DNA from: Escherichia coli
Lineage (GTDB): Bacteria; Pseudomonadota; Gammaproteobacteria; Enterobacterales; Enterobacteriaceae
Length of the DNA: 64,000 bases
Assembly: GCF_044324785.1 (NCBI RefSeq)
Contig: NZ_CP172127.1
Reading direction: 5' to 3' (one strand)
Part shown: positions 1 through 46,459 of the stretch, piece after piece
Layout of the letters: every line of letters begins with the position of its first letter
Numbering within the stretch: position 1 is the first letter of the stretch
Made by a program: the position numbers and the translations under genes
Notes under the pieces: generated by a model
What the model saw: only the letters and a program-made list of their open reading frames with translations
Databases searched by the model: none
Told to the model about the DNA's origin: nothing

Positions 1-440
1 AACGGCACGCCGAGCAGCAAGTTGCCGAAGGCAATACCGAAGACTACCGGCGGCACCAGACTGCCGATGACCAGTCCGGCATCCCACATTTTACGCCAGC
101 GTGCATCGGCGATTTTTCCGCGATAATCAAAGGCCAGCGGGCGGAAGAACAGCGAGCACAGCACCAGAATCATCGCCACATAAAAGCCGGAAAACGCCGC
201 TGCATAAACTCTGGGCCAGGCGGCAAATAATGCCCCACCTGCGAGGATCAACCAGACCTGATTGCCTTCCCAGTGCGCACCAACGCTATTAATCACTATC
301 CGGCGTTCATCATCATCACGCGCCACCAGCGGCAGCAAACAGCCAATCCCCATGTCAAATCCGTCGGAGATCATAAAGACCACCAGGATCACGCCAATCA
401 GCAGCCACCAGATGAAGCGCAATGTTTCATAATCAAACAT
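1..440 (-). CDS. appB: Cytochrome bd-II ubiquinol oxidase subunit II, N-terminal part (gene continues beyond window start)
   Basis: Minus-strand ATG at 440 (cat at 438-440) translates [33 protein letters not shown]..., a CydB/AppB-type N-terminus; lies 11 nt downstream of appC stop. Confidence 0.85.
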
Positions 441-451
441 GATTTTCTCCT

Positions 452-1996
452 TTACCCCTGTTGCTGCGTCGGTTGTTCACTCTGCATCGCGCTCGGCCCC
501 AGACGGGCATATTTCTGCATCAGGTAGACTTCGGCGATTAAGAACAGGGTGTAAAGCCCTACGATCATGATCAGTGAGAAAGCCAGTTGTCCTGTGGTTA
601 AGGCGGAGTGCGCGGAGTATGTCGGTAAGATGTCCTGTATCGCCCACGGCTGACGACCAAACTCGGTCATAAACCACCCGGCTTCAATCGCAATCCACGG
701 CAGCGGCAAACTCCAGAGCGCCATTTTCAGCACCCAGCGATGCTGGTCGATTTTGCCACGCAGCGTCTGGACAAGCGCAATCAGCATCACCAGTAGCAGC
801 AGAGAACCACAGCCCACCATGATGCGGAAACTCCAGAATACCGGCGCAACCTGAGGTATCGCGCCACGCATCGCCGCCTGGTACTGTGCAGCTGTGACAT
901 GGTTCATATCCGGCGCATAGCGGGAGAGCAACATGCCGTAACCAAGGTCGCCTTCCAGCTCCCGGAATGCCTGCAACACATGCGGCTCTCGATTGCCTTG
1001 CGATATTTCCTGCATTAACAGCCAGGCCATACGTCCGCGTTGCAAGCGTGGGTAGGTTTCAGCCATCAAATTCTTCAGACCCGGCACGGGTTTATCTAAT
1101 GAGTGAGTGGCGAGGATCCCTAGCAGCGCGGGAATTTTGATGGCAAAGGCGTTACGCTCTTGATCCTGTTCCGGCCAGGCAACCACATGGAACGGTGCAG
1201 GTGCAGGTTCCGTTTGCCACTCCCCTTCCATCGCCGCCAGTTTTACCGGTTGTACTTGCGCGACTTCATACGCCGAACTGTCTCCGAGTTGCAGCGTACC
1301 GATAATCGCCAGAGTACCGAAGACGGAACCGATGGCAAACGAGCGTAATGCAACATCGCGCTCCCGTCCGCGCAGTAAATACCAGGCGCTGATCGCCATA
1401 ATAAACATGGCCCCGGTCACGTAGCCCGCCATTACGGTGTGTACAAATTTCACCTGGCTGACCGGGTTAAAGACCAGCTCGCTGAAGCTGGTCATTTCCA
1501 TGCGCAGGGTGTCGATATCAAAATGCGCACCGGTCGGGTATTGCATCCAACCGTTGGCATTCAATATCCACAATGCAGAGAGATTTGAACCGAACGCCAC
1601 CAGCCACGTCACCAGCAGGTGCTGGTATTTATTCAGCCGTTGCCAGCCGAAGAAGAACAGCCCGACAAAAGTGGATTCGAGGAAGAAGGCCATTAATGCT
1701 TCCATCGCCAGCGGTGCGCCAAAAATATCGCCCACATAGTTGGAATAGAATGACCAGTTAGTACCAAACTGAAACTCCATGGTCAGGCCGGTAGCCACGC
1801 CAAGAGCAAAGTTGATACCGAAGAGCTTACCCCAGAAGCGCGTCATATCGCGGTAGATTGTTTTGCCGGTGACCACGTAAATGGTTTCCATGATAGCCAG
1901 CAAAAAAATCAGCCCCAGGGTAAGGGGTACAAATAAAAAGTGATACAGCGCGGTCAGAGCAAACTGCCAGCGCGATAAATCAATGACATCCCACAT
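452..1996 (-). CDS. appC: Cytochrome bd-II ubiquinol oxidase subunit I
   Basis: Track ORF 452..2002 (GTG-extended) trimmed to ATG at 1996; product [28 protein letters not shown]... 514 aa. Confidence 0.93.
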
Positions 1997-2129
1997 GCGC
2001 ACTCCTGTAGGCGAAGAGAGAAAAATAACCCGTTAATGGTAGATCTCCCTCTTTATCCTGAAACTCTACGACCAGAGGTATTCGCCGATTGCGATATTCA
2101 TAAGCCTGAAAGCGATACTTACCGTCTTT

Positions 2130-2987
2130 TTACGACGGTGCCCCTTCCGCCAGCCACTGACATACCTCACTAAGCCGCTGCGCAGAGTCGACCAAATCTT
2201 CTGGCGCTGCCAGAACCACTTCCGGTATCGGGCAGATTTCATAACTTTCCAGTAACGGGCCTTTTAAGGTGTCCGTACAGCGTAAATGCCAGACATGGCG
2301 TAACCCCGTGGCGTTGATATAGCTCTCGCCATAGCCAATGGTACGAATCTGAATATTTCCCGGCCCACAGAGACGTGAGAGAAAAAGCCGATCAGCCTCG
2401 CTGATGGGTAATTGCGTCAGATTAATGCTGTGCGGCTGCGCGTCGGGGTTACGTACATGCGCCAGTAACTCATGCGCCAACGGTAGGCCATTCATCAGGC
2501 CATCAATGGGCGGCGGTAACAGCGAATCTGTCGGCAAGAGATTTTGCGTTGCCGCCTGCCACAACGCCAGCGGCGCGCAGCCAGCCTCCAGTTTGTCCTC
2601 CAGCAACTTTTCGCCGCGACGTCTGCGCACCCGCCATAATCCGCAGAAGATCGCCTCCTGTATTTCACTTTCACTGTCGTCAGCCTGCTGAATGCGCACT
2701 GACACTTCCCCTTCCCCGAGAAGCGTATTGATAAAGTGACGATCGTCGGCGTTGAGATTTAACAGATCGACTGCCAGCACCTCGCCCAACGGCGGCTGGC
2801 GTTCGCTTAGTTGATGTTGTAACTCGTTTAACAGCGCAATCACCTGCGGGCTGTGAGCACATTGCTCCAGGGCCGCCATACTCGGTTCATCATTCACCTG
2901 ACAGGTGATCGGCAGTGGATTCATGCTGAAACTGTCATCGTTCGGTTGCGTTCCTGGCCCCAGCAAATGGAAAAAAGTTTCGCTCAT
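2130..2987 (-). CDS. hyaF: Hydrogenase-1 operon protein HyaF (maturation/accessory)
   Basis: Track ORF 2130..3047 trimmed to ATG 2987 ([20 protein letters not shown]...), 285 aa; ATGA overlap with hyaE stop. Confidence 0.9.
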
Positions 2988-3382
2988 GAGGCACGCTCCT
3001 GTTGTGGTTCGACAAGCCCACGCATCAGGTTTATCAGTTCCGCCCACGGGTGGATACCATTCAGCACGCCGCGATAATTACCGCTGGTAAATACTAATGT
3101 GGCGGGAAAGCGAAAGACGCCAAAGCGATCGCCGATGGCTTCGCTCTGCTCAAGGTCAGCTATCGCTACCTGCCATGTATAGTCGGGAAACTCGCGCAGT
3201 AATTCGCTAATCATTACCGGATTATCGCTGACCTCTGGCGTACGTTTCGGGTCACTGCTTAATAACACCACGCCGTCTGGCGCTTGCGTAAGCCAGTCGT
3301 CAAGACGGGATTCACTGACCGGCGTCCAGCCGCGCGCCAGCATTCGTTGCCACAACGCATCAAATGGCGTGTCGTTGCTCAT
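2984..3382 (-). CDS. hyaE: Hydrogenase-1 operon protein HyaE (Tat proofreading chaperone-like)
   Basis: Track ORF 132 aa [31 protein letters not shown]...; 4-nt overlaps with hyaD and hyaF. Confidence 0.9.
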
Positions 3383-3966
3383 CTCTGCTCCTCCTGTGTC
3401 ATCCGGTACTGGCGCAAGCGAACGCCTTCGTAATTTTCCATCGACAGACAGTCATAATTGAGACAACGCGATTCATTAGCCGGTTGCGGCACAATTCCCC
3501 ACGCAGCCAGCTGCGCCAGCGCCGCCTGTTCCGCAGCGGGCAGTTGCTCCCGCGCCAGTTCGCTCAGGCTGCCGCCGTAGTCGTCGAGCATTGCGGGTTG
3601 CAGACCGACGAGGGCAATATGTGCTGGCAGATGTCCGCGGATATCTGCCAGCGCCAGCACTTCGGAGAAACTGTTCTGATGCAGGCTCATTTTCTTCGCG
3701 CTGAGATAAGCCGGAATGCGTTCTCCGGCATATGTTCGCAGCGTTCCGGGTTCCAGCCCGTAATCAATGGCATCGAGGATCAACAAGTGACTGGCGCTTT
3801 CGACATACCCCAGCAAGTTCAGTCCCTGAGTACCGCCATCGACAATCTCCACATCCTCGGGCCAGTGGTAATGGGCATACAGCCGTTCCGCCACCCGCAC
3901 GCCGAAGCCTTCATCGGCCCACAGCAGATTGCCCAGCCCCATTACCACCACGCGTTGATCGCTCAT
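3379..3966 (-). CDS. hyaD: Hydrogenase-1 maturation endopeptidase
   Basis: Track ORF 195 aa [29 protein letters not shown]... (HyaD/HybD-family protease). Confidence 0.92.
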
Positions 3967-4670
3967 GAACGCTCCTTGTTACTTATTTTGCCAAATTTGT
4001 GGCTACGGTAGCCGTTGACCATGGTGGAGATCACTGTGTCGTCGGACATGATGTCTTCACGCAGCGCCATGTAGACATGACCGATCACAAACGCGCCAAT
4101 CAGCCACATCCCCAGCCGATGCCAGCTGTGAATGTCCATTGAGTTGCCACCCGTCCAGTAGAAAAATTCCACCACATAACGGAACGGCGCAAAAATAGCG
4201 TACTGGCTGTGTTCGCTGTACAGCGCAAAGCCGGTGATGATCATAAAAACTGACATCAGGAAATAGCCGAACATCGCCGCCTGGGCGATGGGGTTATGGC
4301 CTATATCGGCACTCGGACGTTTTGCCAGAAACAGATACCAGCGGATTTCATACCACACGCCCTGCCACCAGCTTTTACGCCATACCGGCACGATAAACAG
4401 CTCGCGGGAGTATCGATTGCCAACAAAAGCCCAGTAGATCCGCATCAGCAAGACCACGGTAAAAACCATCCCGGCGCTGAAGTGAATTAACCTGATGTAG
4501 CCCATATAGAACAGATACGTCGCCTCGCCGCTGACGGAAGGTAGCGGCTTGCCGATAAAGTAACCGGTGACCATCAACACCGCCATGCATAACACCGTCA
4601 GCCAGTGCCAGATACGCACTGGCGCTTCAAAGACATAGTGGCTGACAACGTTGTCGCTTTTCTGTTGCAT
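3963..4670 (-). CDS. hyaC: Hydrogenase-1 b-type cytochrome subunit
   Basis: Track ORF 235 aa, hydrophobic membrane protein [38 protein letters not shown]... Confidence 0.92.
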
Positions 4671-4688
4671 GATGATTCTCCTTCGCTG

Positions 4689-6482
4689 TTAACGCACCTG
4701 CACGGAGATCAGCTCGCTACCGTCGTCGCCCAGCACGTGTGTTGAACAGGCGAGGCACGGATCAAAGCTGTGCAGAGTACGCAGGATCTCCAGCGGTTGC
4801 TCGGGGATCGCCATTTTGGTGTTCATCAGCGCCGCTTCATAAGCGCCAATCTGCCCTTTGGGATCGCGCGGGCTGGCGTTCCAGGTGGTCGGCACCACGC
4901 ACTGGTAGAGATCAATCTTGCCATCGCGAATGGCGGCCCAGTGGCCTAACGCTCCGCGCGGCGCTTCGGTAAAACCGACACCACGGCACTCTGTCGGCCA
5001 GGTTGTGGGTTCCCATTTTTCCGTGGAGGCGGTGGCAAGATTGCCGTTTTTCAGGTTAGTCATCAGCTTGTTGAAGAAATACTGCAACTTACCTGCGGCC
5101 CACTGTGCTTCGTGTGCGCGGCACAAAATGCGGCCCAATGTTGACTGGATACCGGAAAGCGGCAGGTTCAGCGCCGACATCATGCGATCGACCGACTCAA
5201 CGGTCGCCGCATCGCCTTTGTGATAAGCGATTAACGTGCGTGCCAGCGGCCCCACTTCCATCGCGTTACCGCGCCAGCGTGGCGCTTTGATCCACGAGTA
5301 GCGTTCCTGTTCATTCAGCTGCTGAATGTTGGTATCGCTGCCTTTGACATCGCCGGGGTTGTACCACGGGTCGGTAATGCCATCGAACGGATGACGCCCG
5401 ACCTGATCGTTGGGATAACGATACCAGGCGTGGTCGACAAACTCCTGCACCTGCTGCGGATCAACCAAATCCACTGGCAGCACATTGTTGAAGTCGCCGT
5501 TAATCACCGCGCCGCCAGGCATCAGCAGACTTTTCTCGCCAAAGTCGTTGGCGATATCCGGGAACGCGCCGTAACTGAGAACGCATTTATCCGAAAGGCC
5601 AGTGCCGATTTCGCTCCACGGTTTGTTGAACTGACCGATGGCTAAGGCGTCGGGGATCATCACGTTGTTAATGAAATCCGCCGTGCGGGTGATAATCGAC
5701 TGCACCAGGTTCAGGCGTTCCATATTGACCGCCCCGACCGCGCCGCTTTCGTCAATGTTAATGGCGCAAGGCATCCCACCGACAATCCAGTTTGGATGCG
5801 GGTTTTTACCGCCAAAAACCGCGTGGATTTTGACAATTTCACGCTGGAAATCGAGAGCTTCGAGATAGTGGGCAAAGCCCATCAGATTGGCTTCTGGCGG
5901 CAGTTTGTACTGCGGGTGCCCCCAGTAGCCATTGCGGAAGATCCCCAACTGCCCACCTTCAACGAATTTCTTCAGGCGGTTTTGTACGTCGAAGAAATAG
6001 CCAGGGGATGATTTCGGCCAAGAGGAGAGACTTTGCGCCAGTTCGGAGGTTTTCCGCGGATCGGCTTTCAGCGCATCTAACACATCGATCCAGTCCATCC
6101 CGGCAAGCTGATAGAAGTGCACCAGATGATCGTGGCACCAGAGCGTTGCCAGCATAATGTTGCGGATGATATTGGCGTTGTCCGGCACTTTAATACCGAT
6201 GGCATCTTCGATGGCGTAAACCGAAGCCAGGGCGTGTACGCCAGTACAGACACCGCAGATACGTTCAACGAACGCCCACGCATCGCGCGGGTCGCGCCCT
6301 TGCAGGATGATCTCCAGCCCGCGAAACATGGTGCCGCAGGAGACGGCATTGGTGATCACATTCTGATCGTTAATATTCACTTCGCAGCGCATGTGGCCTT
6401 CGATGCGCGTAATCGGGTCGACCACCAGGCGGCGTCCGGCATTGTTGATGGTGTATCCCTGAGTTTCGTACTGAGTGCTCAT
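4689..6482 (-). CDS. hyaB: [NiFe] hydrogenase-1 large subunit
   Basis: Track ORF 597 aa with N-terminal RICGVC and C-terminal DPCLAC nickel-binding motifs. Confidence 0.95.
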
Positions 6483-7597
6483 GCCTGTTTATCCTCATTG
6501 CCTGGCTGATGTTCGGTTTCTGTAGGTTGCTGGTTATGACGTCTGCGCTGGTCAACGGCGCTGGCAACTGCGTGCACACCAACAGCCGCTGCCACCACGC
6601 CAAGCGCGGTTAAACCGACGGTGTCGGCGGTGGAATGAGTACCCATTTGCGGAATATCGACTACGCGGCTGTAGAACGAACCGCGATCCCAGAAACCATT
6701 TTCCGCGCAGCCCAGGCAGCCGTGACCAGACTGGATTGGGAAAGAAACGCCATCATTCCAGCGGGTGGAGGAACAGGCGTTATAGGTGGTAGGCCCTTTG
6801 CAGCCCATTTTGTACAGGCAGTAACCTTTGCGGGCAGCGTCATCATCCCAACTCTGGACGAACTCTCCGGCGTCGAAGTGAGCGCGGCGATAACATTTAT
6901 CGTGGATACGCTGACCATAAAACATCAGTGGACGGCCCATTCTGTCGACATCTGGCAAGCGATCAAAGGTCACCATGTAAGTAATGATGGCGCTCATCAC
7001 ATCCGGGATCGGCGGGCAGCCAGGTACTTTGATAATAGGTTTGTCGGTGATGACTTTGTCGATAGGCGTTGCCTGCGTCGGATTGGGTCGCGCGGCCTGC
7101 ACGCAGCCCCAGGACGCGCAGGTTCCCCAGGCGATAATCGCGCTGGCTCCGGCAGCGGCACGTTTGAGTTTCTCAATAAACGGTCGACCGCTGCTGATAC
7201 AGAACATCCCCTGCTCGCCCAGCGGCGGATTACCTTCTACTGCGAGGATATATTTGCCATTGTATTGCGTGATGATGTCTTCAAAGACTTCTTCCGCCTG
7301 GGTTCCGGCGGCAGCCATCAAAGTATCGTCGTAATCGAGGGAAATCAGGGAAAGGATGACGTCCTTTGCCAGCGGGTGAGCGGAGCGGATAAAAGATTCG
7401 GTACAGCAGGTGCATTCCAGACCGTGGATCCATACCACCGGAATGCGCGGTTTGTTCTCCAGCGCCCAGGCAATCTTTGGTGCCATTCCCGCGCCTAATC
7501 CCAGCGACGTGGCAGCCAGACTACAATATTTGAGAAAGCTGCGCCGGGTAACGCCCTGACGCCGCATGGCCTGGTAAAATGTTTCCTCGTTATTCAT
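6479..7597 (-). CDS. hyaA: [NiFe] hydrogenase-1 small subunit (Tat-exported)
   Basis: Track ORF 6479..7624 trimmed to ATG 7597 ([29 protein letters not shown], twin-arginine signal); ATGA overlap with hyaB start. Confidence 0.93.
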
Positions 7598-8023
7598 ATC
7601 GCACGTCTCTTCTCCTTGCGACACCGGCAGGACACCGGGCGCTTATGGTCGGCAAGCGACGTCCCTGTAGCAAGGCAAACCATCGCTTCACGTGAGATGC
7701 TGAAAACGAAAGCTCATCCTTCTGCACTGGCGCACGTCGCCAGAAAGTATTGTTAATAAAGCGTAGTGAAACTTTTGCACAAAACAATACAAACTGTATG
7801 GATTTATCTTTTAGCGATAAAAATGGACCTATTTTTCTTTTTGCCGGGCAGTGGGGATGTTTAGCCGGTTGCTAAACGAGTAAAAGAGAAGGAATTCATG
7901 GTGATGAAATGATCAATCTGCTGTTATTTCACGCTATCAATGCACTTTTGGCTGTTTTTCAGGCAAACAAACAAATTAGGGGTTTACACGCCGCATCGGG
8001 ATGTTTATAGTGCGCGTCATTCC

Positions 8024-8111
8024 GGAAGTGTGGCCGAGCGGTTGAAGGCACCGGTCTTGAAAACCGGCGACCCGAAAGGGTTCCAGAGTTCGAATCTCTG
8101 CGCTTCCGCCA
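8024..8111 (+). tRNA. serT: tRNA-Ser (anticodon UGA)
   Basis: 88-nt GGAAGTGTGGCCGAGCGGTTGAAGGCACCGGTCTTGAAAACCGG...CGCTTCCGCCA; 7-bp acceptor stem, long variable arm, anticodon loop CTTGAAA, encoded CCA end. Confidence 0.93.
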
Positions 8112-8121
8112 AATAAGATAA

Positions 8122-8154
8122 GGGGTTAGCTAAATGCTAACCCCTTTTTCTTTT
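8122..8154 (+). terminator. Rho-independent terminator downstream of serT
   Basis: Perfect 9-bp stem GGGGTTAGC/GCTAACCCC with loop TAAAT followed by TTTTTCTTTT. Confidence 0.8.
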
Positions 8155-8317
8155 GCCTGTCGAAATTCTCAGGGCGTTATATTTGCTTAATGACCTGATA
8201 ATCCGTTGTTAAACCTGTTCCAGATCAAATGCGTAAAGATGGGTAAAACTTCTGGGTGCCCTTACGCATTATCATTATGCTGCTTAATTAATTACATCTG
8301 TCATAGAGAGTGACTCA

Positions 8318-8977
8318 ATGGATCGTATTGTTAGTTCTTCACATGACCGTACATCGCTGCTTAGCACCCATAAGGTGCTGCGTAATACCTATTTTCTGCT
8401 GAGCCTGACGCTGGCCTTTTCGGCGATTACCGCAACTGCCAGTACGGTGCTGATGCTGCCATCTCCGGGTCTGATTCTGACGCTGGTGGGTATGTATGGT
8501 TTGATGTTCCTGACCTATAAAACGGCGAATAAGCCGACCGGAATTATCTCCGCATTCGCCTTTACCGGTTTTCTGGGTTATATCCTCGGACCAATTCTGA
8601 ACACCTATCTGTCTGCCGGAATGGGTGACGTAATCGCTATGGCACTGGGCGGAACGGCGTTAGTGTTCTTCTGCTGCTCTGCATATGTGCTGACCACCCG
8701 CAAAGATATGTCGTTCCTCGGCGGTATGCTGATGGCGGGTATTGTGGTGGTGCTGATTGGTATGGTTGCTAATATCTTCCTGCAGCTGCCCGCTCTGCAT
8801 CTGGCGATCAGCGCGGTCTTCATTCTGATCTCCTCTGGCGCTATTTTGTTTGAAACCAGCAACATCATTCATGGCGGTGAAACGAACTATATTCGTGCCA
8901 CGGTTAGCCTGTATGTTTCGCTGTACAACATCTTCGTCAGCCTGCTGAGCATTCTGGGCTTCGCCAGCCGCGATTAA
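8318..8977 (+). CDS. yccA: Inner-membrane protein of the BAX inhibitor-1 (TMBIM) family, modulator of FtsH
   Basis: Track ORF 219 aa [39 protein letters not shown]..., seven hydrophobic segments. Confidence 0.92.
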
Positions 8978-8999
8978 TCTCACCCGCTAACACTGTCAT

Positions 9000-9029
9000 A
9001 GCCTCGCTTTATGCGGGGCTTTGTTTTTT
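9000..9029 (+). terminator. Candidate intrinsic terminator after yccA
   Basis: Stem AGCCTCGC/GCGGGGCT (one G-U wobble) followed by TTGTTTTTT. Confidence 0.6.
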
Positions 9030-9067: not shown

Positions 9068-9397
9068 ATGCTGATCTTCGAAGGTAAAGAGATAGAAACG
9101 GATACCGAAGGCTATCTCAAAGAAAGCAGCCAGTGGAGTGAGCCGCTGGCAGTGGTGATTGCAGAGAACGAAGGGATTTCGCTGTCGCCAGAACACTGGG
9201 AAGTGGTGCGTTTTGTGCGTGATTTCTATCTGGAATTCAATACTTCTCCGGCGATTCGTATGCTGGTAAAAGCGATGGCGAATAAATTTGGCGAAGAAAA
9301 AGGTAACAGCCGCTATTTATACCGACTGTTTCCGAAAGGTCCGGCTAAGCAAGCCACCAAAATTGCTGGCCTGCCAAAACCGGTAAAATGTATTTAA
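9068..9397 (+). CDS. tusE: Sulfurtransferase TusE (2-thiouridine tRNA modification)
   Basis: Track ORF 9011..9397 trimmed to ATG 9068 ([23 protein letters not shown]...), 109 aa, DsrC-like C-terminal ...PKPVKCI. Confidence 0.9.
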
Positions 9398-15852: not shown

Positions 15853-18006
15853 ATGCTAAGTCCTTTGCTCAAACGCTATACCTGGAACAGCGCCTGGCTG
15901 TATTACGCGCGTATTTTTATTGCGCTTTGTGGAACCACAGCGTTTCCGTGGTGGCTGGGTGATGTAAAACTGACGATTCCGCTGACGCTGGGGATGGTGG
16001 CAGCGGCGCTGACCGATCTCGATGACCGACTGGCGGGACGTTTGCGTAACCTCATCATTACGCTGTTCTGCTTTTTTATCGCCTCGGCCTCAGTAGAATT
16101 GCTGTTTCCCTGGCCCTGGCTATTTGCGATTGGCCTAACGCTCTCTACCAGCGGCTTCATTTTGCTCGGCGGTCTGGGTCAACGCTATGCAACAATTGCC
16201 TTCGGTGCATTGCTGATCGCCATTTACACTATGTTGGGAACATCACTGTATGAGCACTGGTATCAGCAGCCGATGTATCTGCTGGCCGGTGCCGTCTGGT
16301 ACAACGTCCTGACACTTATTGGTCATCTGCTGTTCCCGGTCCGCCCGCTGCAGGACAACCTGGCGCGTTGCTATGAACAACTGGCGCGTTATCTTGAGCT
16401 CAAGTCGCGCATGTTTGATCCTGATATTGAAGATGAAAGCCAGGCACCGCTGTACGATTTGGCTCTCGCCAACGGTCAGCTGATGGCGACATTGAATCAG
16501 ACGAAACTCTCGCTGCTTACCCGCTTACGTGGCGATCGTGGTCAACGGGGAACGCGTCGCACGCTGCATTATTACTTTGTCGCACAGGATATTCACGAGC
16601 GTGCCAGCTCTTCTCATATTCAGTATCAAACATTGCGTGAACATTTTCGCCACAGCGACGTACTGTTCCGTTTTCAGCGGCTGATGTCGATGCAGGGCCA
16701 GGCGTGCCAGCAACTGTCACGCTGTATTTTGCTGCGCCAGCCTTATCAACATGATCAGCATTTTGAGCGCGCTTTTACGCATATTGATGCTGCGCTGGAG
16801 CGGATGCGCGATAACGGCGCGCCTGCCGATTTACTCAAAACACTGGGATTTTTGCTGAACAATTTACGCGCTATTGATGCCCAACTGGCAACAATTGAAT
16901 CAGAACAGGCCCAGGCACTGCCCCATAATAATGACGAAAATGAGCTCGCTGATGACAGCCCGCACGGATTAAGTGATATCTGGCTGCGTCTTAGCCGTCA
17001 CTTCACGCCGGAATCCGCCCTCTTCCGTCATGCGGTAAGAATGTCGCTGGTGTTGTGCTTCGGCTACGCCATCATTCAGATAACCGGAATGCATCACGGG
17101 TATTGGATCTTGCTGACAAGTTTGTTTGTCTGCCAGCCAAACTATAACGCCACGCGCCACCGCCTGAAGTTAAGGATTATTGGGACGCTGGTAGGTATCG
17201 CCATTGGCATTCCTGTGCTGTGGTTTGTGCCGTCACTGGAAGGGCAACTGGTGCTACTGGTTATTACCGGCGTGCTCTTTTTTGCCTTCCGTAACGTGCA
17301 ATACGCCCATGCAACGATGTTCATCACACTTTTGGTGCTACTTTGTTTTAACTTACTGGGTGAAGGTTTTGAAGTGGCGTTACCTCGCGTAATTGATACG
17401 CTGATTGGTTGTGCCATTGCGTGGGCGGCAGTGAGCTACATCTGGCCTGACTGGAAGTTTCGCAATCTGCCGCGCATGCTCGAACGCGCCACAGAGGCCA
17501 ACTGTCGGTATCTCGACGCCATACTGGAGCAATACCATCAGGGACGTGATAACCGTCTGGCGTATCGTATTGCCCGCCGCGATGCACACAACCGTGATGC
17601 TGAACTGGCGTCGGTGGTATCAAATATGTCCAGCGAGCCGAACGTTACCCCGCAAATTCGCGAGGCCGCGTTTCGGTTGCTGTGCCTTAACCATACGTTT
17701 ACCAGCTATATCTCAGCCCTCGGTGCTCACCGGGAGCAGTTAACTAATCCTGATATTCTGGCGTTTCTTGATGACGCAGTTTGCTATGTTGATGACGCGC
17801 TACATCATCAACCTGCTGATGAAGAACGCGTCAATCAGGCATTAGCTGGCCTGAAACAGCGGATGCAGCAACTTGAACCGCGGGCAGACAGCAAAGAACC
17901 TCTGGTCGTACAACAAGTCGGGTTATTGATTGCATTACTGCCAGAGATTGGTCGTCTGCAACGCCAGATTACTCAAGTTCCGCAGGAAACTCCTGTTTCG
18001 GCGTAA
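15853..18006 (+). CDS. yccS: Inner-membrane protein YccS (aromatic acid exporter-like, FUSC family)
   Basis: Track ORF 15844..18006 trimmed to ATG 15853 (MLSPLLKRYTWNSAWLYYARIF...), 717 aa. Confidence 0.9.
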   Translation: MLSPLLKRYTWNSAWLYYARIFIALCGTTAFPWWLGDVKLTIPLTLGMVAAALTDLDDRLAGRLRNLIITLFCFFIASASVELLFPWPWLFAIGLTLSTSGFILLGGLGQRYATIAFGALLIAIYTMLGTSLYEHWYQQPMYLLAGAVWYNVLTLIGHLLFPVRPLQDNLARCYEQLARYLELKSRMFDPDIEDESQAPLYDLALANGQLMATLNQTKLSLLTRLRGDRGQRGTRRTLHYYFVAQDIHERASSSHIQYQTLREHFRHSDVLFRFQRLMSMQGQACQQLSRCILLRQPYQHDQHFERAFTHIDAALERMRDNGAPADLLKTLGFLLNNLRAIDAQLATIESEQAQALPHNNDENELADDSPHGLSDIWLRLSRHFTPESALFRHAVRMSLVLCFGYAIIQITGMHHGYWILLTSLFVCQPNYNATRHRLKLRIIGTLVGIAIGIPVLWFVPSLEGQLVLLVITGVLFFAFRNVQYAHATMFITLLVLLCFNLLGEGFEVALPRVIDTLIGCAIAWAAVSYIWPDWKFRNLPRMLERATEANCRYLDAILEQYHQGRDNRLAYRIARRDAHNRDAELASVVSNMSSEPNVTPQIREAAFRLLCLNHTFTSYISALGAHREQLTNPDILAFLDDAVCYVDDALHHQPADEERVNQALAGLKQRMQQLEPRADSKEPLVVQQVGLLIALLPEIGRLQRQITQVPQETPVSA

Positions 18007-24839: not shown

Positions 24840-26476
24840 TGTTTCGCCCTCTTCGGCTCTGGATCTTTTTTGTCCTTCGCTTCAAATACCAGCGCGTTAC
24901 TCTTCTCATTGAGCGTTTTCAGCACCGGTTGCAGTTCTCGCAACACCTGATCAAGGCGCTGCATATCCGCCACCATCTTGTTGTAGGCTGCGGAGCCAGG
25001 CTGGAAGCCCTGCATGCTGCGATTCAATTCACGCAACGTTGACTGCATATCCGTCGGCAGCTGCTGCATCGACTGGCTGGCGAGGATCTTGTTCATGCTA
25101 TCCAGCGTCGTTTGCAGGTTTTTCATTGTGCGCTGACTTTCAGAAAGCGTACTGGTTGCCTGTTCAATCATCGGATTCAATGGCAGTTTGTTGATCTTAT
25201 CCAACGCTTCCATCAGTCGTTGCTGGATTTGCGCCAGGCCGCCGCTAACGGTCGGGATAATCTGATAACCATTAAATTCACGAATACCGGTTATTGCAGG
25301 CGTATTTGGATAGAAATCGAGATCAACATACAGTGCGCCAGTGACCAGGTTTCCGGTTTTCAGCGATCCGCGTAAACCACGTTTCAACAATTCGCCAAGG
25401 TGCTCAACAACATCCGCATTTTCGCCAAGCTGCATTTTCAGCCGCTCTGGCTCGATACGAATCAGTACCGGAATACGGTAATCATCGTTAAATGTCTGAC
25501 GCATATTCGGCGCAAAGAATGGCACTTTGCTTACGGTACCCAGGCGAATCCCCCGGAATTCTACCGGAGCTCCCGGTTGCAGACCGCGTACCGAATCTTT
25601 AAAGAACATCAGATAATCAATGTGATCGGTGTACAACGAATCCTGAATGCTCTTCTGATCATCATACAAAACGAAAGCTGTTTTCGGTGCCACTGGCTGC
25701 CCTAAATCCAGACCTTCCGGCACATCAAAGCTGACACCGCCACTAAGCAGCGTTGTCAATGAGCCCATCTCCACACGCATTCCCGCTGACGTCAAATCAA
25801 CCGCAATGCCACTATCTTTCCAGAAGCGAACATTGCTGGTCACCAGTCGGTCATAAGGTGCATTGATGAACAGTTGATAGCTGATATTGCGTTTTTGCGT
25901 ATCGAAGGTGCTGGTTTCAACCGAACCTACCCGATAGCCACGGAACAGCACGGGATCTCCTGGCGAGAGCTGCCCGGCTTTTTTGCTATCGAGAATCACA
26001 CGGATACCTTTCGCATCAGGCGGGGCCAACGGTGGCGAGTCCAGCAAATCGTATTTATCCATTTTGCTGCCTTTCGCGCCTGGCTGCAGTTCGATATAAA
26101 CCCCAGACAGCAGCGTTCCCAGGCCGCTAATCCCTTCTCGACCAATCTGCGGTTTCACCACCCAAAAGACGGTATCTTTATGCAGCAATTTTTCCATACC
26201 GGAATTCAGCCGCGCTTTGATTTCAACGTGCGTCAAATCATCAGCCAGTGTGGCGCTTTCAACCACGCCGACGTCAACGCTACGGCTTTTAATGGTGGTT
26301 TTACCACCTTCAATTCCTTCCGCATTCGCGGTGATCAGGGTCACTTCCGGCCCCTGATGGCTGTAATGATAAAAAAGAACCCAGGCCCCAATGAGCGCCG
26401 TGACGATAGGAAATATCCACACGGGAGACCAGTTCTTCACTTTCTGGATTTTGGCTTCCCCATTATTAGATTCCAT
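24836..26476 (-). CDS. pqiB: Paraquat-inducible protein B (MCE-domain protein)
   Basis: Track ORF 24836..26536 trimmed to ATG 26476 (MESNNGEAKIQKVKNWSPVWIFPIVTALIGAWVLF...), 546 aa. Confidence 0.9.
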   Translation of the reverse strand: MESNNGEAKIQKVKNWSPVWIFPIVTALIGAWVLFYHYSHQGPEVTLITANAEGIEGGKTTIKSRSVDVGVVESATLADDLTHVEIKARLNSGMEKLLHKDTVFWVVKPQIGREGISGLGTLLSGVYIELQPGAKGSKMDKYDLLDSPPLAPPDAKGIRVILDSKKAGQLSPGDPVLFRGYRVGSVETSTFDTQKRNISYQLFINAPYDRLVTSNVRFWKDSGIAVDLTSAGMRVEMGSLTTLLSGGVSFDVPEGLDLGQPVAPKTAFVLYDDQKSIQDSLYTDHIDYLMFFKDSVRGLQPGAPVEFRGIRLGTVSKVPFFAPNMRQTFNDDYRIPVLIRIEPERLKMQLGENADVVEHLGELLKRGLRGSLKTGNLVTGALYVDLDFYPNTPAITGIREFNGYQIIPTVSGGLAQIQQRLMEALDKINKLPLNPMIEQATSTLSESQRTMKNLQTTLDSMNKILASQSMQQLPTDMQSTLRELNRSMQGFQPGSAAYNKMVADMQRLDQVLRELQPVLKTLNEKSNALVFEAKDKKDPEPKRAKQ

Positions 26477-33244: not shown

Positions 33245-33783
33245 ACTGCCTGTTCGAGGCTGAAGCTGTCCGCATTAACCTGCGGTTTCAGCCTGTCGTT
33301 CATGATTTTAATGGCGTCGCCCAACTGCATCGTGCGACCCGCAATAACAACGCAGGGTTGGGCCAGCAGGCATAGTGCGGCATTTTCGCCAGATTCAATG
33401 ACCAGCAAATTGACCTGCTCGTGAGTATCGCTCAACCAAACGCAGGCCGCATCGCCCGGCATGGGCATCCACATTTCACCATGAGATACAAAATGCCAGC
33501 TTTTCGGCATTTGCGGTTTGAGATAACGAATTGCTACCAGTGCATTAAGCACCAGTTCGGCTTTTTGTTCTTTAGATAAATTAAAATCGCGGCATTTTTC
33601 TTCAAATGAGAAATAGAGCGCTGCATCATCAACACAAAAAACGGAGGGATTAAAGGCATCTGGTGTGAGCATTTTACGAGCAAAACGCGAGCGAAATAAC
33701 ATACCATTGGCTAAATCGAGCATCATTCGATCGTGCTCTTCATCATAATACCAGCGCCAGTTATCGTCAGGTTTAATTCGCAT
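33241..33783 (-). CDS. zapC: Cell-division protein ZapC
   Basis: Track ORF 180 aa [30 protein letters not shown]... Confidence 0.92.
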
Positions 33784-42798: not shown

Positions 42799-43750
42799 GA
42801 TCATTAAACTGGCGCTGGCGGGCTTACTTAGCGTCTCTACACTTGCTGTTGCCGCGGAGTCTTCGCCAGAGGCGTTACGGATTGGCTATCAGAAAAGCAA
42901 CATCAGTTCGGTGCTGGCGAAAAATTACCAAATGCTGGAAAAACGCTATCCGCAAACAAAAATCTTCTGGGTGGAGTTCCCGGCTGGCCCGCAGATGCTG
43001 GAGGCACTGAACGTCGGTAGTATCGATCTGGGTAGTACGGGAGATATTCCGCCAATCTTTGCTCAGGCCGCCGGGGCTGATTTGCTGTATGTGGGTGTCG
43101 AGCCACCGAAGCCAAAAGCCGAAGTGATTCTGGTGGCAGAAAATAGTCCGATCAAAACCGTAGCCGATCTTAAAGGTCACAAAGTTGCCTTTCAGAAAGG
43201 TTCCAGTTCACACAACCTTTTACTGCGTGCACTGCGTCAGGCCGGACTTAAGTTTACCGATATACAACCCACTTACCTGACACCCGCTGATGCCCGCGCC
43301 GCGTTCCAGCAAGGTAACGTTGACGCCTGGGCTATCTGGGATCCCTACTACTCCGCTGCATTATTACAGGGCGGCGTGCGGGTGCTGAAAGACGGCACCG
43401 ATCTCAATCAAACCGGATCGTTTTATCTGGCTGCCCGTCCGTATGCAGAAAAAAACGGCGCATTTATTCAGGGTGTACTGGCAACCTTTAGTGAGGCCGA
43501 TGCGTTAACCCGCAGCCAGCGCGAGCAAAGCATCGCCTTATTGGCAAAAACGATGGGCTTACCGGCCCCGGTGATTGCCTCGTATCTGGATCATCGCCCT
43601 CCCACCACCATCAAACCGGTTAACGCCGAAGTTGCCGCCTTACAGCAGCAAACGGCAGATCTGTTTTATGAAAACCGTCTGGTGCCGAAAAAAGTCGATA
43701 TTCGCCAGCGTATCTGGCAGCCCACTCAACTGGAAGGAAAACAATTATGA
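42791..43750 (+). CDS. ssuA: Aliphatic sulfonate ABC transporter periplasmic binding protein
   Basis: Track ORF 42656..43750 trimmed to ATG 42791 ([34 protein letters not shown]...), 319 aa; 8-nt overlap with ssuE. Confidence 0.92.
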
Positions 43751-44892
43751 GTCTGAATATGTTCTGGTTTTTACCGACCCATGGTGACGGGCATTATCTG
43801 GGAACGGAAGAAGGTTCACGCCCGGTTGATCACGGTTATCTGCAACAAATTGCGCAAGCGGCGGATCGTCTGGGCTATACCGGTGTGCTAATCCCAACGG
43901 GGCGATCGTGTGAAGATGCGTGGTTGGTGGCGGCGTCGATGATCCCGGTGACGCAGCGGCTGAAGTTTCTTGTCGCCCTGCGCCCCAGCGTAACCTCACC
44001 TACCGTTGCCGCCCGCCAGGCCGCCACGCTTGACCGTCTCTCTAATGGACGTGCGTTGTTTAACCTGGTCACAGGCAGCGATCCACAAGAACTGGCAGGC
44101 GACGGCGTGTTCCTTGATCATAGCGAGCGCTACGAAGCCTCGGCGGAATTTACCCAGGTCTGGCGGCGTTTATTGCTGGGCGAAACCGTCGATTTCAACG
44201 GTAAACATATTCATGTGCGGGGAGCCAAACTGCTCTTCCCGCCGATTCAACAGCCGTATCCTCCGCTTTACTTTGGCGGATCGTCAGACGTCGCCCAGGA
44301 GCTGGCGGCAGAACAAGTTGATCTCTACCTCACCTGGGGCGAACCGCCAGAACTGGTTAAAGAGAAAATCAAACAAGTGCGGGCGAAAGCTGCCGCGCAT
44401 GGACGCAAAATTCGTTTCGGTATTCGTCTGCATGTGATTGTTCGTGAAACCAACGACGAAGCGTGGCAGGCCGCCGAGCGGTTAATCTCGCATCTTGATG
44501 ATGAAACTATCGCCAAAGCACAGGCCGCATTCGCCCGGACGGATTCCGTAGGACAACAGCGGATGGCGGCGCTCCATAACGGCAAGCGCGACAATCTGGA
44601 GATCAGCCCCAATTTATGGGCGGGCGTTGGCTTAGTGCGCGGCGGTGCCGGGACGGCGCTAGTGGGCGATGGTCCGACGGTCGCCGCGCGGATCAACGAA
44701 TACGCTGCACTTGGCATCGACAGTTTTGTGCTTTCGGGCTACCCGCATCTGGAAGAAGCGTATCGGGTTGGCGAATTGCTGTTCCCGCATCTGGATGTCG
44801 CCATCCCGGAAATTCCCCAGCCGCAGCCGCTGAATCTGCAAGGCGAAGCGGTGGCAAATGATTTTATCCCCCGTAAAGTCGCGCAAAGCTAA
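43747..44892 (+). CDS. ssuD: FMNH2-dependent alkanesulfonate monooxygenase
   Basis: Track ORF 381 aa [44 protein letters not shown]... Confidence 0.94.
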
Positions 44893-45695: not shown

Positions 45696-46459
45696 ATACT
45701 GCTCGTCTGAACCAGGGCACACCATTGTTGCTCAATGCAGTAAGCAAACATTACGCGGAAAATATCGTCCTGAACCAACTGGATTTACATATTCCGGCTG
45801 GTCAGTTTGTGGCGGTGGTGGGCCGCAGCGGTGGTGGCAAAAGTACCCTGCTGCGCCTGCTGGCAGGTCTGGAAACGCCAACCGCTGGCGATGTGTTAGC
45901 GGGCACCACACCGCTGGCTGAAATTCAGGAAGACACGCGAATGATGTTTCAGGATGCGCGTCTGCTGCCGTGGAAATCGGTGATTGATAACGTTGGGTTA
46001 GGCCTTAAAGGCCAGTGGCGCGATGCCGCGCGTCGGGCGCTGGCTGCAGTAGGACTGGAGAATCGCGCAGGGGAATGGCCTGCCGCACTTTCTGGCGGGC
46101 AGAAACAGCGTGTGGCGCTGGCAAGAGCGTTGATTCATCGACCGGGTTTATTATTGCTTGATGAACCGCTCGGGGCGCTGGACGCCCTGACTCGGCTCGA
46201 GATGCAGGATTTGATTGTGTCACTTTGGCAGGAGCACGGCTTTACCGTACTGTTGGTGACGCATGATGTGAGCGAAGCGGTAGCAATGGCTGACCGGGTG
46301 TTGTTAATTGAAGAGGGAAAAATTGGTCTGGATTTGACGGTGGATATCCCCCGTCCGCGCCGGTTAGGGTCGGTGCGATTAGCGGAGCTGGAAGCGGAAG
46401 TGTTGCAACGGGTGATGCAGCGTGGTGAATCTGAAACTCGCCTGAGAAAACAGGGGTAA
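45692..46459 (+). CDS. ssuB: Aliphatic sulfonate ABC transporter ATP-binding protein
   Basis: Track ORF 255 aa with Walker [10 protein letters not shown] and ABC signature LSGGQKQR. Confidence 0.93.

Follow-up and report, generated by a model that had tools for sequence, protein, structure and literature searches.

ATGA start/stop overlaps at four of the five hyaABCDEF junctions of Escherichia coli are consistent with ordinary translational coupling

The window analysed here, a 64,000-nt stretch of Escherichia coli DNA, contains a gene run in which the stop codon of one gene and the start codon of the next repeatedly share nucleotides as ATGA, raising the question of what such recurrent overlaps reveal about the genes that they join. 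The locus is hyaABCDEF, the hydrogenase-1 operon; the enzyme is a membrane-bound uptake hydrogenase of the [NiFe] type. Both the open reading frame (ORF) list and the RefSeq annotation contain an intact operon of six co-directional genes on the minus strand, in the order small subunit, large subunit, cytochrome b, endopeptidase, HyaE and HyaF:

6479–7597, minus strand: hyaA, hydrogenase-1 small subunit, 372 aa, with a Tat signal (RefSeq CDS; TIGR00391, 674.8 bits; TIGR01409 match; Shine-Dalgarno (SD) ΔG −8.4)
4689–6482, minus strand: hyaB, hydrogenase-1 large subunit, 597 aa (NF007550 equivalog, residues 1–597/597, 1441 bits)
3963–4670, minus strand: hyaC, cytochrome b subunit, 235 aa (NF007551, 1–235/235; PDB 4GD3_A, 1–235)
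3379–3966, minus strand: hyaD, hydrogenase-1 maturation endopeptidase, 195 aa (NF007616, 1–195/195)
2984–3382, minus strand: hyaE, HyaA-specific chaperone, 132 aa (NF008563, 1–132/132; PDB 2HFD_A, 1–132)
2130–2987, minus strand: hyaF, 285 aa (RefSeq CDS; HupH_C domain, Pfam PF04809, E = 2e-43)

The CDS boundaries in the ORF list agree with the RefSeq annotation of a 100%-identical record, E. coli N3 NZ_CP031609.1, in which none of the hya genes carries a pseudogene flag. All six ORFs are full length with one terminal stop each, the HMM matches of HyaB to HyaE are likewise full length, and HyaB, HyaC, HyaD and HyaE exceed the cut-offs of their NCBIfam equivalogs, as HyaA does that of its subfamily model. 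In addition, both expected hydrogenase-1 features are present, namely the Tat signal on HyaA (TIGR01409) and, on HyaB, a C-terminal extension of the kind cleaved off during maturation, which comprises 15 residues (the 597-aa gene product versus residues 1–582 of PDB 3UQY_L). The original prediction had taken the overlaps as confirmation that the operon is intact; the operon is indeed intact, but it is the full-length ORFs, and not the overlaps, that establish this. At least 80% of the hya locus is carried by 5418 of 5426 complete E. coli genomes, and this particular sequence variant is 100% identical to that of E. coli N3 only, the next best among 5,425 genomes reaching 98.3%. A 324-aa HyaD match (P0001), considered as a HyaD–HyaE fusion born at an ATGA junction, is an internal duplication of HyaD and was rejected as such a fusion. 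In a consensus scan, sites resembling promoters or terminators were no more frequent within the operon than in shuffles, as would be expected of a polycistronic unit, and Rfam and promoter/terminator scans of positions 1–9000 found tRNA-Ser and its terminator alone.

Direct reading of the sequence, matched by the annotation, bears out the predicted geometry, with ATGA overlaps at four of the five junctions and the hyaB stop and hyaC start 18 nt apart. The plus strand reads 'tcat' at 6479–6482, 3963–3966, 3379–3382 and 2984–2987, corresponding to ATGA on the minus-strand mRNA; at all four sites the TGA closes one gene and the ATG opens the following one. The span originally given for the overlaps, 2984–6482, exactly brackets all four, with no mention of the minus strand. 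The junctions are as follows:

6479–6482, minus strand: hyaA/hyaB ATGA overlap, hyaA stop TGA and hyaB start ATG; kept in 9/9 Enterobacterales hya operons
4671–4688, minus strand: hyaB–hyaC spacer, 18 nt, between hyaB TAA (4689–4691) and hyaC ATG (4668–4670)
3963–3966, minus strand: hyaC/hyaD ATGA overlap, by direct reading; kept in 9/9 Enterobacterales
3379–3382, minus strand: hyaD/hyaE ATGA overlap, by direct reading; Escherichia only
2984–2987, minus strand: hyaE/hyaF ATGA overlap, by direct reading; kept in Escherichia and Salmonella

An SD motif lies 5–9 nt before each start, and at all four ATGA junctions the motif of the downstream gene lies within the 3′-terminal codons of its upstream neighbour:

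6492–6496, minus strand: hyaB SD GAGGA, within the last codons of hyaA, 9 nt before ATG; ΔG −6.1
4678–4683, minus strand: hyaC SD AAGGAG, in the hyaB–hyaC spacer, 7 nt before ATG; ΔG −8.8
3972–3977, minus strand: hyaD SD AAGGAG, within hyaC, 5 nt before ATG; ΔG −8.3
3388–3395, minus strand: hyaE SD AGGAGGAG, within hyaD, 5 nt before ATG; ΔG −10.3, top 0.5% of hya-mRNA 20-mers
2996–3000, minus strand: hyaF SD AGGAG, within hyaE, 8 nt before ATG; ΔG −7.8

The ΔG values of the hya SDs, from −6.1 to −10.3 kcal/mol, fall in the top 0.5–10% of 20-mers in hya mRNA and compare with a weaker median of −2.7 for 49 other start sites of the window. All four overlapped genes open with ATGAGC (Met-Ser).

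The frequency of such overlaps was compared with a base rate for −4 pairs drawn from the window's own gene pairs and from a published upper bound for E. coli, 707 of 2987 pairs within −8 to +6 (PMC10666635). Outside hya, −4 overlaps account for 3 of the window's 33 same-strand neighbour pairs, and for 3 of 16 among pairs spaced at most 25 nt. The probability of at least four ATGA junctions in five comes to 3e-4 for p = 0.09 and 5e-3 for p = 0.19, and rises to 1.3e-2 with the published upper bound; the hya run therefore exceeds the local base rate and is denser than average, yet it is unexceptional among compact operons. The ssu operon of the same window has junctions of −8, −4, +10 and −4, and the −4 overlap is the most frequent junction in E. 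coli, as it is across 1,695 species (PMC6728339; PMC10666635). Moreover, the hya ATGA pattern is already known, the same distances being tabulated for K-12.

Our junction comparison of nine Enterobacterales hya operons, in which Escherichia, Salmonella, Citrobacter and Edwardsiella are represented, reveals that ATGA is retained throughout at A/B and C/D only. The D/E junction spans −11 to +5 nt (−11 in Salmonella, −7 in Edwardsiella, +5 in Citrobacter and ATGA in Escherichia), and the E/F junction spans −4 to +3 nt (Citrobacter and E. hoshinae have −1, as TGATG, and two Edwardsiella species have +3). These differences between genera indicate that ATGA itself is not strongly constrained at D/E and E/F; among orthologous operons, junctions take several interchangeable states between −11 and +5, of which ATGA is one. 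Every junction in the nine operons falls within −11 to +19 nt, and the hyaB/hyaC spacer measures 18–19 nt in all of them. The terminal ~17 nt of hyaA are invariant in the nine genomes, as is the hyaD SD region, ACAAGGAG, and at the A/B junction six of eight third-codon positions at the end of hyaA are invariant, versus 20% gene-wide in hyaB (P = 0.0014). The conserved trait thus appears to be tight spacing with an embedded ribosome-binding site, not ATGA itself, and selection seems to keep the former.

The overlaps had been described as the classic arrangement for translational coupling. The geometry conforms to that description, and the same arrangement is strictly coupled in four of the five native E. 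coli ATGA pairs tested, hyfH/I, astD/B, ydbH/ynbE and menD/H (PMC6728339), whereas for hya itself coupling, and its size, are plausible by analogy; our literature search found no paper that links the hya genes with translational coupling. In the published work, a gap of ~20 nt all but abolished reinitiation (PMC6728339; PMC10666635). If hyaABCDEF is read as a single polycistronic mRNA, a ribosome terminating at UGA would stand 1 nt past an AUG with an SD 5–9 nt upstream, and that ribosome, or at least its 30S subunit, could restart at the overlapping AUG. Translation of hyaB, hyaD, hyaE and hyaF would then depend in part on translation of the preceding cistron, and some de novo initiation at the embedded SDs may also occur. 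Ordinary termination–reinitiation coupling at the four ATGA junctions, with embedded SDs and close spacing apparently under selection, is probably the best explanation of these observations.

The same junctions bear on an alternative that we consider unlikely, in which the overlaps, though real, are by-products of how junctions evolve and functionally neutral, the cistrons being initiated mainly independently at their own strong SDs with little coupling. Around the four ATGA starts, local folding does not exceed that of shuffles in stability (z −0.2 to +1.2), with no occluding RNA structure; the strong SDs, which are not sequestered by unusual structure, meet no obvious block to independent initiation, and the ATGA pair bioB/bioF provides a precedent for de novo initiation without coupling (PMC6728339), against the four coupled pairs of the same study. 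A neutral route can also be envisaged, since a second codon starting with A would give ATGA, a ready TGA stop for an upstream gene drifting into frame. The shared ATGAGC opening fits such a route, as do the persistence of ATGAG(C/T) at the hyaF start even where the E/F junction is −1 or +3, and the variation of D/E and E/F among genera (−11, −7, −4, −1, +3, +5). However, neutrality sits poorly with the retention of ATGA at A/B and C/D in 9/9 Enterobacterales despite 20% gene-wide third-codon invariance, and with the confinement of all junctions to −11 to +19 nt.

A further, doubtful reading would divide the operon into two translational relay units, a tightly coupled A/B pair, which fits the 1:1 heterodimer, and an uninterrupted relay from hyaC through hyaD and hyaE to hyaF, with the 18–19-nt spacer acting as a reset before hyaC. 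On this reading, the output of the cytochrome and of three maturation factors would be capped by hyaC initiation, and the informative feature would be the position of the lone non-overlapping junction (9/9 Enterobacterales), not the overlaps. In E. coli, a hairpin pairing 4704–4711 with 4673–4681 covers part of the hyaC SD (z −1.7; 12 of 200 shuffles fold as well), and in Escherichia and Edwardsiella pairing is possible between the strong hyaC SD and the final codons of hyaB. The CUCC arm of the hairpin is missing in Citrobacter and Salmonella, and the consensus fold over nine genomes contains neither the hairpin nor compensatory changes; an SD-occluding hairpin as a conserved coupling device at hyaB/hyaC was accordingly rejected.

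Less likely still is the proposal, also part of the original prediction, that the ATGA overlaps serve to hold the hydrogenase subunits and their maturation factors at a fixed stoichiometry. It suits HyaA and HyaB, which form a 1:1 heterodimer and share a conserved ATGA junction, but A/B is the only one of the four ATGA pairs whose partners belong to the same stable complex. Maturation proteases work catalytically, not stoichiometrically, and HyaD, a protease by its NF007616 match, would thus be expected to act in that way. Coupling efficiency is below 1 and differs from gene to gene, so that ratios are not fixed; coupling would coordinate expression, but by itself would probably not set fixed protein ratios. 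The D/E overlap is not conserved outside Escherichia, nor the E/F overlap beyond Escherichia and Salmonella, and the crystal retained only one cytochrome b per (αβ)2. Furthermore, the remaining three ATGA junctions, C/D, D/E and E/F, join non-complex pairs, classed as 'CMPLX not' in Table S2 of Huber et al. 2023, where complex partners occur in only 1/4 hya ATGA pairs, whereas the complex pair B/C has no overlap but a +18 spacer, in the range of falling coupling efficiency (PMC10666635).

The overlaps would be artefactual in part if one or more junction starts were mis-annotated, the condition under which the prediction was to fail, but the starts are well supported by ORF limits, HMMs, PDB chains and SDs. 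In hyaB, hyaC, hyaD and hyaE, the annotated ATG is the earliest start that the ORF allows, with no in-frame alternative upstream; the corresponding NCBIfam equivalog models cover each protein from residue 1 to its end, the PDB chains of HyaB, HyaC and HyaE start at residue 1, and the N-termini of the hya proteins align with those of relatives at offset 0. Mis-annotation is highly improbable even for hyaD, with GTG and ATG candidates 5–8 codons downstream of its annotated start, and for hyaF, where a GTG in frame lies 20 codons upstream (3047) and the lack of an NCBIfam model matching HyaF leaves the start without an anchor, given that a correctly spaced SD precedes every hya start, that relatives of HyaF align from residue 1, and that an in-frame TGA two codons upstream of the homologous ATG excludes a longer N-terminus in two Edwardsiella species.

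For hya, the check therefore amounts mostly to annotation quality control, with gene boundaries correct, the operon intact and very little beyond. It also offers a small worked example of orthologous operons in which tight spacing and the embedded ribosome-binding site persist while overlap length drifts, and for this reason ATGA is better read as 'probably coupled' than as 'fixed stoichiometry'.

Comparison with E. coli K-12 hyaABCDEF (b0972–b0977) shows six genes in identical order and identical junctions of −4, +18, −4, −4 and −4, followed by +133 to appC (Huber et al. 2023 Table S2); the flanks, appCB downstream and tRNA-Ser/yccA upstream, are shared as well, and no structural difference between the two hya loci was found. 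The coupled −4 pairs of Huber et al. (2019, 2023) resemble those of hya in lying on the same strand, sharing ATGA and carrying an SD embedded within the end of the first gene. They differ in that the pairs with demonstrated coupling are hyfH/I, astD/B, ydbH/ynbE and menD/H, and in that complex partners are encoded by one hya ATGA pair only. The E. coli hybOABCDEFG operon (hydrogenase 2) and the hup/hox-type operons of other Proteobacteria are likewise tightly packed with frequent short overlaps and, as in hya, place structural subunits alongside a specific protease and chaperones, although the overlap lengths of K-12 hyb (junctions +2, −11, −4, −1, −8, −8, +12) are unlike those of hya. In distant uptake-hydrogenase loci, the junction between the small- and large-subunit genes is −4 in 11/49 and −1 in 6/49 under a heuristic choice of starts; many junctions in distant operons exceed 20 nt, and the HyaD and HyaE homologues lie ~290–670 nt apart, rather than adjacent as in hya.

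The hyaABCDEF operon lies on the minus strand of the window, and its boundaries in a mechanical ORF list agree with the RefSeq CDS:

6479–7597, minus strand, hyaA (RefSeq CDS)
4689–6482, minus strand, hyaB (RefSeq CDS)
3963–4670, minus strand, hyaC (RefSeq CDS)
3379–3966, minus strand, hyaD (RefSeq CDS)
2984–3382, minus strand, hyaE (RefSeq CDS)
2130–2987, minus strand, hyaF (RefSeq CDS)

NCBIfam equivalog models match HyaB (1–597 of 597), HyaC (1–235 of 235), HyaD (1–195 of 195) and HyaE (1–132 of 132) above cut-off, HyaA is recognised by the small-subunit model and also has a Tat-signal match, and HyaF contains the Pfam HupH_C domain; the gene identities are secure. A 6-kb query (window 1900–7900) found the locus in 5,418 of 5,426 complete E. 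coli genomes, with 100% identity to strain N3 (NZ_CP031609.1) only. The locus itself is near-universal, and this strain carries a somewhat divergent allele of it. The best match after N3 shows 98.3% identity (among 5,425 genomes), identity of at least 99% occurs in one genome only, and five matches are plasmid-borne. The original prediction that the operon is intact holds by virtue of six full-length ORFs free of pseudogene flags; the overlaps themselves are not the evidence for it.

Read directly, the sequence confirms exactly the predicted ATGA overlaps at four of the five junctions, the only omission having been the minus strand. At each, TGA is the stop of the upstream gene and ATG the start of the downstream gene:

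6479–6482, minus strand, hyaA/hyaB overlap (plus strand tcat, ATGA on the mRNA)
3963–3966, minus strand, hyaC/hyaD overlap (plus strand tcat, ATGA on the mRNA)
3379–3382, minus strand, hyaD/hyaE overlap (plus strand tcat, ATGA on the mRNA)
2984–2987, minus strand, hyaE/hyaF overlap (plus strand tcat, ATGA on the mRNA)

The hyaB/hyaC gap is likewise 18 nt as predicted, from the hyaB stop TAA (4689–4691) to the hyaC start at 4670. The hexamer ATGAGC (Met-Ser) opens all four overlapped genes (6477–6482, 3961–3966, 3377–3382 and 2982–2987, minus strand).

Misplaced junction starts, the refuting condition named originally, are not borne out: the annotated starts stand when judged from in-frame starts, protein chains, relatives and Shine-Dalgarno (SD) motifs. 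In hyaB, hyaC, hyaD and hyaE the annotated ATG is the earliest start codon past the upstream in-frame stop, so that a longer form is impossible. Crystallised or NMR chains of HyaC (1–235) and HyaE (1–132) begin at the annotated residue, and that of HyaB (residues 1–582, ending where the 15-residue C-terminal extension starts) has the same N-terminal residue as the annotation. For hyaF, an in-frame GTG lies 20 codons upstream of the annotated ATG; alignment with its relatives starts at residue 1, and in two Edwardsiella species an in-frame TGA stands two codons 5' of the homologous ATG. An SD motif, embedded in the upstream gene or, for hyaC, in the spacer, precedes every downstream start:

hyaB, GAGGA, 9 nt to ATG
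hyaC, AAGGAG, 7 nt to ATG
hyaD, AAGGAG, 5 nt to ATG
hyaE, AGGAGGAG, 5 nt to ATG
hyaF, AGGAG, 8 nt to ATG

Their anti-SD duplex energies (−6.1 to −10.3 kcal/mol) rank in the top 0.5–10% among all 20-mers of the hya mRNA; the window's other 49 annotated starts have a weaker median, −2.7.

From 80 loci with HyaD relatives (one genome per species), the six homologues were located by tblastn and junctions were measured from the start candidate closest to the E. coli-aligned N-terminus. Nine were full orthologous Enterobacterales operons, from three Escherichia, three Edwardsiella, two Citrobacter and one Salmonella genome:

A/B, ATGA in 9 of 9
B/C, 18–19 nt in 9 of 9
C/D, ATGA in 9 of 9
D/E, −4 in Escherichia only; −7 (GTG) in Edwardsiella; +5 in Citrobacter; −11 (GTG) in Salmonella
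E/F, −4 in Escherichia and Salmonella; −1 (TGATG) in Citrobacter and E. hoshinae; +3 in two Edwardsiella

In the nine genomes the final ~17 nt of hyaA (6483–6499, minus strand) show no variation, and neither does the SD block ACAAGGAG ahead of hyaD. In the hyaA stretch 6 of 8 synonymous third-codon positions are invariant, as compared with 20% of third positions across hyaB (P = 0.0014), a sign of nucleotide-level selection on the hyaB ribosome-binding site embedded there. In distant hup/hox-type operons, where start choice is heuristic, the small and large subunit genes meet at −4 in 11/49, at −1 in 6/49 and with >20 nt in 15/49, and the HyaD and HyaE homologues are ~290–670 nt apart rather than adjacent. 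The feature that persists is tight spacing with an embedded SD, ATGA being one among several interchangeable states. The relatives of hyaF keep ATGAG(C/T) even at −1 or +3 junctions, so ATGA in part reflects the downstream N-terminus.

Salmonella enterica subsp. arizonae (loci L010 and L048 of the HyaD-relative search) and subsp. diarizonae (L013 and L031) each carry two related operons: the hya orthologue, with ATGA at A/B, C/D and E/F, and a paralogue (HyaD ~52–54% identical) with +2 at A/B, GTGA at C/D and a ~295-nt gap between the HyaD and HyaE homologues. P0001, a 324-aa HyaD homologue from a public database, repeats approximately its residues 1–131 in an internal tandem duplication; it is not a HyaD–HyaE fusion and is likely an assembly artefact.

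Translational coupling, the original reading of the overlaps, is plausible at hya, and ordinary termination–reinitiation along a polycistronic mRNA is the reading with the best support. Local structure at the four ATGA starts does not exceed that of shuffles in stability (z −0.2 to +1.2), so nothing visibly blocks de novo initiation at the strong SDs, and reinitiation and independent initiation are likely to occur side by side. Within the operon, sites resembling promoters or terminators show no excess over shuffles, and a literature search found no paper testing coupling at hya. At hyaB/hyaC, a hairpin in the E. coli mRNA (4673–4711, minus strand) pairs the last hyaB codons (4704–4711) with the hyaC SD and spacer (4673–4681) at −22.4 kcal/mol (z = −1.7; 12/200 shuffles fold as well). 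If acting, it would represent the classical unmasking type of coupling. It is not put forward as a conserved element, since its arm is missing in Citrobacter and Salmonella and a consensus fold over nine genomes contains no compensatory changes.

The further proposal, that the overlaps fix the stoichiometry of enzyme and maturation factors, is weak. Among the ATGA junctions, A/B alone links two partners of a stable 1:1 heterodimer. C/D, D/E and E/F, which link cytochrome, protease, chaperone and accessory protein, are non-complex pairs in a published table (Huber et al. 2023, Table S2), B/C is the other complex-forming junction and the one without overlap, and the crystal structure kept one cytochrome b per (alpha-beta)2 (PMC4771823).

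Outside hya, −4 overlaps occur in 3/33 same-strand neighbour pairs of the window (pqiB/C, ssuA/D, ssuC/B), or 3/16 among pairs spaced ≤25 nt. The probability of at least four of five junctions at −4 is 3e-4 at p = 0.09, 5e-3 at p = 0.19 and 1.3e-2 at a generous published upper bound, the 707/2,987 E. coli unidirectional pairs within −8 to +6 (PMC10666635). The hya run is denser than average, yet well inside the range of compact operons. Annotated co-directional junctions and other features of the window are:

24849–24852, co-directional, pqiB/pqiC, −4
42804–42811, co-directional, ssuE/ssuA, −8
43760–43763, co-directional, ssuA/ssuD, −4
45704–45707, co-directional, ssuC/ssuB, −4
63235, co-directional, mukE/mukB, −1
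9394–9397, convergent, tusE/yccX 3' overlap, 4 nt
17969–18006, convergent, yccS/sxy 3' overlap, 38 nt
33254–33257, convergent, ycbX/zapC 3' overlap, 4 nt
8024–8111, tRNA-Ser, the sole Rfam match in 1–9000, upstream of hya
8120–8146, perfect 11-bp hairpin after tRNA-Ser, T-runs on both strands
3364–4011, plus strand, 215-aa ORF antisense to hyaD/hyaC, without RefSeq annotation
6635–7498, plus strand, 287-aa ORF antisense to hyaA, without RefSeq annotation

Placed between the tRNA-Ser gene and the hyaA upstream region, the hairpin resembles a bidirectional terminator, and both antisense ORFs, lying within coding sequence, are probably spurious.

Published work ranks −4 (ATGA) well ahead of all other junctions in frequency, both in E. 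coli and across 1,695 species; of five native E. coli ATGA pairs, four are strictly coupled by termination–reinitiation and bioB/bioF is uncoupled, and reinitiation is almost lost with spacers of ~20 nt (Huber et al. 2023 and its 2019 predecessor). The K-12 distances (hyaA/B −4, hyaB/C +18, hyaC/D −4, hyaD/E −4, hyaE/F −4; hyaF/appC +133; Huber et al. 2023, Supplementary Table S2) equal those of the present strain, and the overlaps are an ordinary, already documented feature. By comparison, ssuEADCB in the same window has junctions of −8, −4, +10 and −4, and the paralogous hybOABCDEFG of K-12 has +2, −11, −4, −1, −8, −8 and +12.
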